Shown: positions 39,224-41,731 of the stretch, one piece after another
Numbering within the stretch: the stretch's first letter is position 1
Layout: each line of letters begins with the position of its first letter
Assembly: GCA_020723365.1 (NCBI GenBank)
Contig: DYJB01000005.1
Coordinates: 1 to 42,990, forward strand
Length of the DNA: 42,990 nt
Direction of reading: 5' to 3'
DNA from: Candidatus Aquidulcis sp.
GTDB taxonomy: Bacteria > Chloroflexota > Anaerolineae > Anaerolineales > E44-bin32
The notes under the pieces: generated by a model
The model's input: the letters and a program-made list of their open reading frames with translations, nothing else
What the model was told of the DNA's origin: nothing
The model's database searches: none
Translations under genes and position numbers: made by a program

Positions 39224-41731
39224 ATGTCCTTTGTTCACCTGCACGTCCATTCCGAATACTCGCTGCTGGATGGCCTGAGCCGCATCCCGCACCTGGTCTC
39301 GCGCGCCAGGGAGCTGGGCATGCCGGCGCTGGCCCTCACCGATCACGGCACGATGTTCGGGGTGGTCGATTTCTACCGCGCCGCCAAGGCGGCCGGCATC
39401 AAGCCGATCCTGGGCATGGAGACCTACCTGGCGCCGCGCGGCATGCGTGACCGCGACCCGCAGGCGGACAGCCGTGCCTTCCATCAGGTGCTGCTGGCCG
39501 AAAACGACACCGGTTACCGCAACCTGCTGCAGATCGCCAGCGCGGCGCAGCTCGACGGTTTCTACTATCGGCCGCGCATCGACCACGACTACCTGGCGGC
39601 GCACAGCGAAGGCCTGATCGTGAGCACGAGCTGCCTTTCGGGCGAGATCCCGCGCGCCCTGGCCGACGGACGCCACGACCACGCCCAGCGGCTGGCCGAC
39701 TGGTACTTCGAGGTCTTCGGCCCCGAGCGTTTCTTCTTTGAACTGCAGGCGCACGATGTCCCCGAATTGACGGCGGTCAATCGCGGGCTGCTGGATCTCG
39801 CCCAGCGCTACCCGGCGCGCTTCATCGCCACCAACGACGTCCACTACGTCAACCCCGAGGACGCCGAGCTGCAGGACATCCTGCTGTGCATCCAGACCGG
39901 CTCCCTGCGGGCCGATCCGCAGCGCATGCGCATGACGGATCCTTCCTACTACCTGCGCACACCGCAGGAGATGCAGACCCTCTTCGGCGACGTTCCCGGG
40001 GCCCTGAGCAACACCCTGCTGGTGGCCGAACGCTGCGCCGTGGACCTGGACTTCAAGGGCTACCACCTGCCGGAGTTCCAGGTGCCGCCGGGCGAGACGC
40101 CGGACTCCTTCCTGCGCGCCCAGTGCGAGCAGGGGCTGGTGCGTCACTACGGCGACCGCGCCGGGCAGGCGGACGTCCGCCGGCGGCTGGACTACGAGCT
40201 GGGCGTCATCCACCAGATGGGATTCGACACCTACTTCCTGATCGTCTGGGACCTGTGCCGCCATGCCCGCGAGCAGGGCATCTGGTACAACGCCCGCGGC
40301 TCGGCCGCCGGCTCGATCGTGGCCTACTGCCTGGGCATCACGCTCGTCGACCCGCTCGAGCACGGCCTGCTCTTCGAGCGCTTCCTCAACCCCGGGCGGG
40401 TCTCCATGCCGGACATCGACCTGGACTTCCAGGACGACCAGCGGGCGCGCATGCTCGAGTACACCGCCCAGCGCTACGGCCGCGACAAGGTCGCCCAGAT
40501 CATCACCTTCGGCACGCTGGGAGCGCGGGCGGCGCTGCGCGATGTCGGGCGGGTCATGGACATCCCCCTGCCCGAGGTCGACCGGGTGGCCAAGCTGGTG
40601 CCGAACATCCCGGGCAAGCCCATGACGTTGCCCGAGGCGCTCGAGAGCGTGCCGGGCTTCAAGGAAGCCTACGCCTCGGCCGGTTACCTCAAGGACCTGA
40701 TCGACACGGCTACGAAGTTGGAGGGTGTGGCGCGCAATGCCGGCACGCACGCCGCCGGCGTGATCATCACCGACCGGCCGCTGACGGACTACGTGCCTCT
40801 CCACCGCCCGACGAAGGGCGGGCCGGAGGACAACCCCATCGGCGCCATCACCCAGTTCGAGATGCAGGTGCTGGACTCGCTCGGCCTGCTCAAGGTCGAC
40901 TTCCGGGGCCTGTCGACGCTGACGGTGATGGCGCGCGCCTGCGAGCAGATCCAGCGGCGCCACGGTGTGACGCTCGACATCCACTCCATCCCGCTGGACG
41001 ATCCGGCCACCTTTGAGCTGCTGGGCCGGGGCGACGTGCTGGGGGTCTTCCAGGTGGAGGGCGCCGGCATGCGCCGCAACCTGATGGACATGAAGCCCAG
41101 TTCGCTGGCCCATATCGTCGCCATGGTGGCGCTCTACCGGCCGGGCCCGATCGAGTTCATCCCCGAGTACATCCGCCGCATGCACGGCGAGGAGCCGGTC
41201 ACCTACCGCCATCCGGCGCTGGCGCCGATCCTGGAAGAGACCTACGGCATCACCGTCTACCAGGAGCAGATCATGTACACGGCCATGCAGCTGGCCGGGT
41301 ACTCGGCGTCGGAGGCGGATTTCCTGCGCAAGGCGGTGGCCAAGAAGAAGGCCGAGGCCCTGCACCAGGAGCGCGAGCGCTTCGTGCGCGGCGCGGTGGC
41401 CAACAACATCCCGCCGGCGGCCGCCAACACGATCTTCGACGACTGGGAGGCCTTCGCCCGCTACGGCTTCCCCAAGGGCCACGCCGCCGACTACGCCGTC
41501 ATCTGCGTCGAGACCGCCTACCTCAAGGCGCACTACCCCACGGAGTACATGGCGGCGCTGATGTCGGTCTTCAAGGCCGACACCGACAAGGTGGCGCTGT
41601 ACATTGTCGACTGCCGGCGCATGGGCATCGAGGTGCTGCCGCCCGACGTCAACGCCAGCGGGCTGGACTTCGACATCGAGGACCGGCCGCAGGCCAAGCC
41701 GGCCATTCGCTTCGGCCTGGCCGCCATCTAG
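39224..41731 (+). CDS. dnaE: DNA polymerase III alpha subunit, N-terminal ~835 codons (PHP, palm, thumb, fingers), ending at an in-frame TAG
   Basis: MSFVHLHVHSEYSLLDG (PHP), ..LALTDHG.MFG..DFY, the catalytic region GSAAGS.VAY.LGIT.VDP and PDIDLDF, and VKVDFLGL-like (LKVDFRGL). The frame ends ...IRFGLAAI then TAG. Confidence 0.93.
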   Translation: MSFVHLHVHSEYSLLDGLSRIPHLVSRARELGMPALALTDHGTMFGVVDFYRAAKAAGIKPILGMETYLAPRGMRDRDPQADSRAFHQVLLAENDTGYRNLLQIASAAQLDGFYYRPRIDHDYLAAHSEGLIVSTSCLSGEIPRALADGRHDHAQRLADWYFEVFGPERFFFELQAHDVPELTAVNRGLLDLAQRYPARFIATNDVHYVNPEDAELQDILLCIQTGSLRADPQRMRMTDPSYYLRTPQEMQTLFGDVPGALSNTLLVAERCAVDLDFKGYHLPEFQVPPGETPDSFLRAQCEQGLVRHYGDRAGQADVRRRLDYELGVIHQMGFDTYFLIVWDLCRHAREQGIWYNARGSAAGSIVAYCLGITLVDPLEHGLLFERFLNPGRVSMPDIDLDFQDDQRARMLEYTAQRYGRDKVAQIITFGTLGARAALRDVGRVMDIPLPEVDRVAKLVPNIPGKPMTLPEALESVPGFKEAYASAGYLKDLIDTATKLEGVARNAGTHAAGVIITDRPLTDYVPLHRPTKGGPEDNPIGAITQFEMQVLDSLGLLKVDFRGLSTLTVMARACEQIQRRHGVTLDIHSIPLDDPATFELLGRGDVLGVFQVEGAGMRRNLMDMKPSSLAHIVAMVALYRPGPIEFIPEYIRRMHGEEPVTYRHPALAPILEETYGITVYQEQIMYTAMQLAGYSASEADFLRKAVAKKKAEALHQERERFVRGAVANNIPPAAANTIFDDWEAFARYGFPKGHAADYAVICVETAYLKAHYPTEYMAALMSVFKADTDKVALYIVDCRRMGIEVLPPDVNASGLDFDIEDRPQAKPAIRFGLAAI
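41729..41731 (+). other. in-frame amber (TAG) codon interrupting dnaE
   Basis: The DNA reads gcc atc TAG aac gtc ggc. Upstream and downstream ORFs are in the same frame (41750-39218 is divisible by 3). Homologs, as I recall them, read AIKNVG/AIKGVG here. Confidence 0.9.

Follow-up and report, generated by a model that had tools for sequence, protein, structure and literature searches.

The question raised by this locus is whether the in-frame stop codon that interrupts a gene for the alpha subunit of DNA polymerase III (Pol III alpha) belongs to a living bacterium or only to its deposited sequence. In the window, as the whole 42,990-nucleotide stretch of DNA analysed here is called, dnaE occupies positions 39224-42925 of the plus strand, on which all of its features described below are also located, and is a complete DnaE1-type Pol III alpha gene of 1233 codons, broken by a single TAG at 41729-41731. 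Translation from the ATG at 39224 gives 835 sense codons, the TAG and then 397 more codons that end at TGA 42923-42925, and neither a second stop nor a frameshift was found when the gene was searched for them by translation. The local sequence reads ...GCC GCC ATC TAG AAC GTC GGC..., and the peptide context of the stop is AI-X-NVGVGPVQAILDAR, where X is the TAG-encoded position 836.

The upstream fragment (39224..41728, 835 codons) extends from the PHP part through palm/thumb and fingers into (HhH)2, of which it includes the first third, and was matched in Pfam by PF02811 (PHP, residues 5-177), PF07733 (DNA_pol3_alpha) and PF17657 (DNA_pol3_finger); the PDIDLDF motif, to which an earlier note on this DNA had drawn attention, is present in the palm/thumb part at 40409-40429 (residues 396-402). 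The downstream fragment (41732..42925, 397 codons plus TGA) contains the remainder of (HhH)2, and the beta-clamp motif, the OB fold (Pfam PF01336) and the C-terminal domain all lie 3' of the TAG. The beta-clamp motif is QMSLF (41969-41983, residues 916-920), which alignment with E. coli alpha sets on the beta-binding motif. The 90-position Pfam model HHH_6 (PF14579) is divided by the break, with positions 1-30 in the upstream and 32-83 in the downstream fragment, and the NCBIfam Pol III alpha model NF004226 is matched at positions 4-831 upstream and 833-1119 downstream, so that only position 832 is missing. Because exactly one residue is lacking between them, the two ORFs are not chance neighbours; the view of the earlier note that they form one reading frame of about 1233 codons with all modules of Pol III alpha is thus borne out alike by translation, Pfam and NF004226. 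With the upstream fragment alone, NF004226 gives 1076.6 bits, above its cut-off of 1002, and the DnaE2 model NF004225 (621.7, cut-off 939) and the PolC model (218, cut-off 873) both stay below threshold. By these family scores, the gene is a replicative DnaE1, neither an error-prone DnaE2 nor a PolC.

The codon occupied by the TAG was compared in 85 related dnaE loci, namely 80 loci of Anaerolineales/Chloroflexota metagenome-assembled genomes (MAGs) from a scan of GTDB representative genomes, two JGI metagenome contigs (L081 and L082) obtained by an exact-flank scan of JGI metagenomes, and three loci obtained through look-ups of the nearest proteins. A sense codon is present in all 85 (Lys in 84, Arg in one). 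The residue lost aligns with K839 of E. coli (AIKGVG) and K895 of Taq (AVKNVG), so that its identification in the earlier note as the conserved helix-hairpin-helix lysine was right. The closest locus, L081, shares 95.9% nucleotide identity with the window over the whole gene, without indels, and has AAG at this codon, as does L082 (93% nucleotide identity); the six nearest relatives (L081, L082, L163, L074, L001 and L002) all have AAG. The stop can therefore be traced to a single A-to-T transversion private to the window sequence, in keeping with the one-base AAG to TAG change suspected at first, and it is a private, non-programmed nonsense substitution. A mosaic or chimeric junction at this point was ruled out, since the mismatches to L081 and L163 are evenly spread along the gene and reveal no breakpoint.

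The nearest protein cluster contains intact DnaE proteins of 1233-1235 aa with 95-97% amino-acid identity, including the NCBI MAG protein MBM3120994.1. The same cluster contains an 835-aa product (P0249) and a 391-aa product (P0246), both encoded on one 45,285-bp NCBI contig and identical to the window fragments; the start of the 391-aa ORF, according to the public gene call, is the GTG at 41750..41752. As both fragments exist as separate public proteins, the stop belongs to the deposited sequence. The stop allele is unique to this record, no related assembly having it. When the GTDB representative genomes were scanned for an exact pattern from the window sequence, no match was obtained, which indicates that the window genome is not a GTDB species representative. 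A naturally split dnaE in this clade had been suggested by a first homologue search, in which all DnaE proteins seemed to be N-truncated, at 400-690 aa. A longer query gave full-length proteins of 1214-1389 aa, and the apparent truncation is attributed to short contigs together with the influence of length on the hit list; none of the relatives has a split at the position of the window's stop. Among related public assemblies, dnaE is often broken: frameshifts are present in L001, L033 and L074 and many lesions in L080, all four being long-read MFD MAGs, and the P0001 DnaE has a frameshifted stretch directly after AIKNVG.

Apart from the stop, the gene is shown by its substitution pattern to be under purifying selection. 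The dN/dS ratio against L081 is 0.10 for the part before the TAG and 0.125 for the part after it, which upholds the earlier judgement against old decay. When the differences between the window and L081 were polarised with four outgroups, 27 synonymous and 11 non-synonymous changes were assigned to the window branch and 31 and 18, respectively, to the L081 branch. Relaxed selection on the window dnaE was not detectable in either the dN/dS values or the branch counts, from which it follows that the lesion is very recent or not real. An old, decaying pseudogene, to which the in-frame stop together with a second private change (L561R, below) might point, is scarcely credible for a gene with one stop, no frameshift, dN/dS values of 0.10-0.125 on both sides and 1233 codons, the same length as its nearest intact orthologues.

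The TAG is not the only anomaly of the gene. Private deviations were screened in 333 columns conserved at >=95% in 67 full-length sequences, and two were found in the window dnaE, K836* and L561R. Residue 561 is Arg in the window (CGG, 40904..40906) and Leu in 84/84 relatives covering the position; the codon is CTG in L081 and CTG or CTC in the outgroups. The residue belongs to the invariant D-F-L-G-L motif and aligns with L620 of Taq in K-M-D-F-L-G-L, two residues after D618, which we take to be the third catalytic Asp. All three Asp residues of the catalytic triad are present in the window DnaE, and the Leu two residues past the third is replaced by Arg. The original description of the TAG as the only defect consequently needs qualifying. 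The L561R change is more easily reconciled with a copy that is defective or miscalled than with a finely tuned recoded gene, and two private events (n=2) are too few for a statistical claim on contig error either way. One may speculate about a methylation-motif or platform-specific error, as codon 561 changes CCTGG to CCGGG and the stop creates a new TCTAGA.

The remainder of the contig gives little sign of trouble. In nine comparison genes (rpsB, tsf, pyrH, frr, uppS, cdsA, rho and two M23 peptidase genes), 629 invariant columns contain four private deviations, all of them conservative (T->A, E->Q, L->V and V->I) and inside the range shown by the relatives themselves. A generally error-ridden contig is thus unsupported by these few conservative deviations, in a test of little power. 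There are no indels between the window and L081 across 3.8 kb, and the window genes other than dnaE have full domain coverage and none appears interrupted.

On balance, we consider it probable, at roughly 60%, that the deposited base does not come from a viable genome and that it stems either from an error in base calling or in the consensus, or from a minority or dead-end allele taken by the assembler. In this scheme, an A-to-T transversion would have turned the invariant HhH lysine codon AAG into TAG in the replicative DnaE1 of one deposited metagenome-assembled contig, and the living population probably has AAG at this codon. Read literally, the translation would end at residue 835. The PHP domain and the polymerase core would be retained, and the beta-clamp motif, the OB fold, the tau-binding C-terminus and the greater part of (HhH)2 would be lost. 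To judge from E. coli alpha, such a truncated product could polymerise but could not work in a processive replisome; with the clamp motif, the OB fold, the tau-binding end and most of (HhH)2 absent, the 835-residue product could not be expected to support processive replication. An artefact or an unrepresentative allele is favoured by the sense codon in 85/85 relatives, the intact cluster mates of 1233-1235 aa and the lack of decay, and an artefact also by the frequency with which broken dnaE calls turn up, as noise, among related public assemblies. The case for error is weakened, however, by a contig that is otherwise clean (no indels, full domains, few private deviations) and by the nature of the disruptions in the related assemblies, which are frameshifts in long-read MAGs and not substitutions. 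Substitution errors seldom enter a consensus, for which an assembler normally takes the majority allele.

The strongest competing explanation is a genuine and recent nonsense allele in a living lineage, compensated by a second replicative polymerase, by an amber-suppressor tRNA or by read-through, the last in the form of low-level near-cognate decoding of UAG-A that would supply the few polymerase molecules sufficient for a slow grower. We regard this explanation as unlikely, though with an appreciable chance of being correct. It is consistent with the presence of the stop in the deposited public record, on one contig and in two products (P0249 and P0246), with the cleanness of that contig in other respects, and with the intact downstream half of dnaE, which would make the event recent; the combination of L561R and K836* in one gene could also mark a copy just freed from selection. 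Against it, the ratio of non-synonymous to synonymous changes on the window branch is not above that on the L081 branch, the window contains no suppressor tRNA, and no related assembly shares the allele. Compensation by another polymerase is made doubtful by a survey of about 2000 genomes, in which every bacterium had at least one Pol III alpha, two DnaE1 copies were found in 0.3% of the genomes, and Chloroflexi had either DnaE1 alone or DnaE1 with the error-prone DnaE2, which is not a replicase; PHP-Pol3-(HhH)2 was recognised as the universally conserved core of Pol III alpha (PMC3919608). The need of bacteria for at least one Pol III alpha and the rarity of a second DnaE1 are also the reasons why the deposited base is most likely not that of a viable genome.

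The use of TAG elsewhere in the window bears on the proposals that UAG is decoded. The terminators were counted in 35 other window ORFs with a strong GC3 coding signature, of which 15 end with TAG (about 43%), 20 with TGA and none with TAA. The TAG-ended genes include those for an M16 peptidase (1767), rpsB (3875), pyrH (5304), rho (8983) and two LysM/M23 peptidases (10045 and 11307), the six that had been named at the outset as evidence against reassignment. Their terminators proved genuine, as in all six the domains are covered over their full length and another gene (acpS, tsf or frr, among others) comes next; Rho, for example, aligns with its relatives to its last residue, after which the TAG stands. 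As read from these genes, TAG is shown to be an ordinary stop in the window genome. Genome-wide reassignment of TAG, previously called unlikely, is excluded, since TAG closes 15/35 ORFs, rpsB, pyrH and rho among them, at full-length domain ends and no other gene in the window appears interrupted.

Programmed recoding at this site in dnaE would have UAG read as an amino acid such as pyrrolysine, a lysine derivative. Lysine is the residue replaced and dnaE is otherwise intact, and some uncultured Chloroflexi of the Dehalococcoides lineage are reported to possess Pyl-encoding systems (PMC5424206), so that UAG decoding in this phylum is not unthinkable; nothing in the window points to it. The TAG is absent from every relative examined, even at 96% nucleotide identity, and it closes about 43% of the window ORFs, those of core housekeeping genes included. 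The window encodes three tRNAs (Arg-GCG, Ser-GCU and Ser-UGA), to which an Rfam scan of the window added nothing, and searches within the window found neither a tRNA-CUA nor, among its genes, any pyl domain. The 120 nt 3' of the stop folded no better than shuffled sequences (z = -0.62), and such an element is not strictly required for recoding. As the stretch after the stop is nearly identical to that of AAG-bearing relatives, a dedicated recoding element is unlikely to have evolved there. The programmed form of recoding is accordingly extremely improbable. The broader proposal that the TAG is fixed and that full-length DnaE is made through decoding of UAG at codon 836, whether by a Pyl-type or other suppressor tRNA encoded elsewhere or by efficient near-cognate read-through, is likewise very unlikely; were it true, a free-living bacterium would rely on stop-codon suppression for its sole replicative polymerase. 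Suppression or read-through, which the earlier note had left as a third option, has thus gained no support from the unconserved TAG, the missing tRNA-CUA in the window, the ordinary downstream fold or the frequent use of TAG as a terminator.

A functional two-piece DnaE, in which a 391-aa fragment started anew at GTG 41750 would associate non-covalently with the 835-aa fragment, is also most improbable. The GTG lies 19 nt past the stop and is used as a start in a public collection, and E. coli alpha cut near residue 917 is a folded polymerase that was used for crystal structures (2hqa, 2hnh). The break in the window gene lies inside (HhH)2, however, and not at a domain boundary. Re-initiation would drop the six residues NVGVGP, which form the hairpin, and no convincing Shine-Dalgarno sequence was found in the 21 bases before the GTG. 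No intein halves or extra sequence were found at the break, where position 832 of the NF004226 model is all that is lacking, and no relative is divided at the same position. Programmed recoding, a functional split enzyme and an old pseudogene jointly account for a few percent.

The consequences depend on the status of the deposited base. If it is an artefact or a dead-end allele, as we consider probable, it is a matter of curation only: dnaE should be annotated with an internal stop or corrected, and the MAG should not be counted as one without an intact replicase. If the T were fixed and no second replicase were present, an essential polymerase would depend on amber suppression, which would be biologically notable; nothing found points there.

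Compared with known systems, the window gene shares its domain order with DnaE1-type Pol III alpha (E. coli DnaE and Taq; NF004226 and TIGR00594) and keeps the D-x-D motif and the third catalytic Asp, and it differs in the TAG that breaks the ORF at the position of E. coli K839 and in the Arg that replaces the invariant Leu of DFLGL. In cyanobacteria, a split dnaE is known whose halves are joined by split-intein trans-splicing; DnaE is likewise encoded there as two ORFs, whereas the window ORFs are contiguous, in one frame, separated by one stop and devoid of intein halves. With the UAG-pyrrolysine of Pyl-using bacteria and archaea, the locus has in common an in-frame UAG in an intact gene and a phylum with some Pyl users (PMC5424206), but its UAG is unconserved in orthologues, the gene is no methylamine methyltransferase, many genes of the window end with TAG, and the window has no pyl genes or tRNA-CUA. 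Among the broken dnaE genes of related long-read MAGs, the lesions are frameshifts, in contrast to the substitution in the indel-free contig of the window. The closest likeness is to the internal-stop pseudogene calls and base errors of draft MAGs, in which one disabling change, confined to one assembly, likewise affects an essential single-copy gene otherwise under purifying selection, and the lesion seen here is ordinary.

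A second substitution private to the window was found in dnaE, the gene for a DnaE1-type Pol III alpha (39224-42925, plus strand) that is interrupted by an in-frame TAG. At codon 561 (40904-40906), CTG is changed to CGG, replacing Leu with Arg, and Leu occupies this position in all of the related dnaE loci that cover it (84/84). The affected residue belongs to DnaE's invariant DFLGL motif and follows the third catalytic Asp by two positions. In nucleotide terms, the ancestral sequence around the codon, TTCCTGGGC, contains CCTGG, and the window reads CCGGG. At the stop codon itself, the private A-to-T transversion at 41729 creates the hexamer TCTAGA (41727-41732), of which the window holds no other copy; CTAG is strongly depleted in the window, with 16 occurrences observed versus about 59 expected from trinucleotide counts.

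Disrupted or enlarged dnaE genes were also observed in related metagenome-assembled genomes (MAGs). Frameshifts are present in dnaE of L001, L033 and L074, and dnaE of L080 carries multiple stops and frameshifts; these four loci come from long-read MFD MAGs. In L075, an intein-like insertion (about 2177-3420, about 1.2 kb) keeps the reading frame; it is located near residue 680 of dnaE and gives an ORF of 1626 aa. A gap similar to this insertion is seen in L080.

Elsewhere in the window, a bacterial Elp3 homologue composed of radical SAM and GNAT domains is encoded at 13671-16097 (plus strand; TIGR01211, 478 bits, residues 332-791). Roughly the first 268 codons of this ORF as listed resemble non-coding high-GC read-through, and translation probably starts at the ATG near 14475 instead. 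On the minus strand, an ORF of 586 codons (11566-13326) shows good GC3 but matches no family in Pfam or NCBIfam; its product has a hydrophobic region at the N-terminus and a soluble domain after it. Since the 5' end of this ORF overlaps a tRNA-Arg, translation probably begins at the ATG (MTERSGD) near 13212. Directly 3' of an ECF sigma factor gene lies a pair of plus-strand ORFs (32419-33991), neither with a Pfam match at E <= 0.001, which may form a pair of anti-sigma or membrane partners. The 337-aa member is the counterpart of an L163 gene listed with PF26514 (DUF8173).

Between this DUF8173-like gene and dnaE, a cassette of about 5.1 kb (34045-39158), with all genes on the minus strand, encodes two ABC permeases, a solute-binding protein and a ROK-family regulator, and GC drops to 0.63 within it. 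The cassette is missing at the equivalent position in L163, L074 and L001. Its dnaE-proximal part matches L164 (over window positions 37123-38585) and L165 (over 37329-38585), and the genes called in L164 show the same ABC transporter and ROK arrangement. Among close relatives, the cassette appears to be an insertion/deletion polymorphism.
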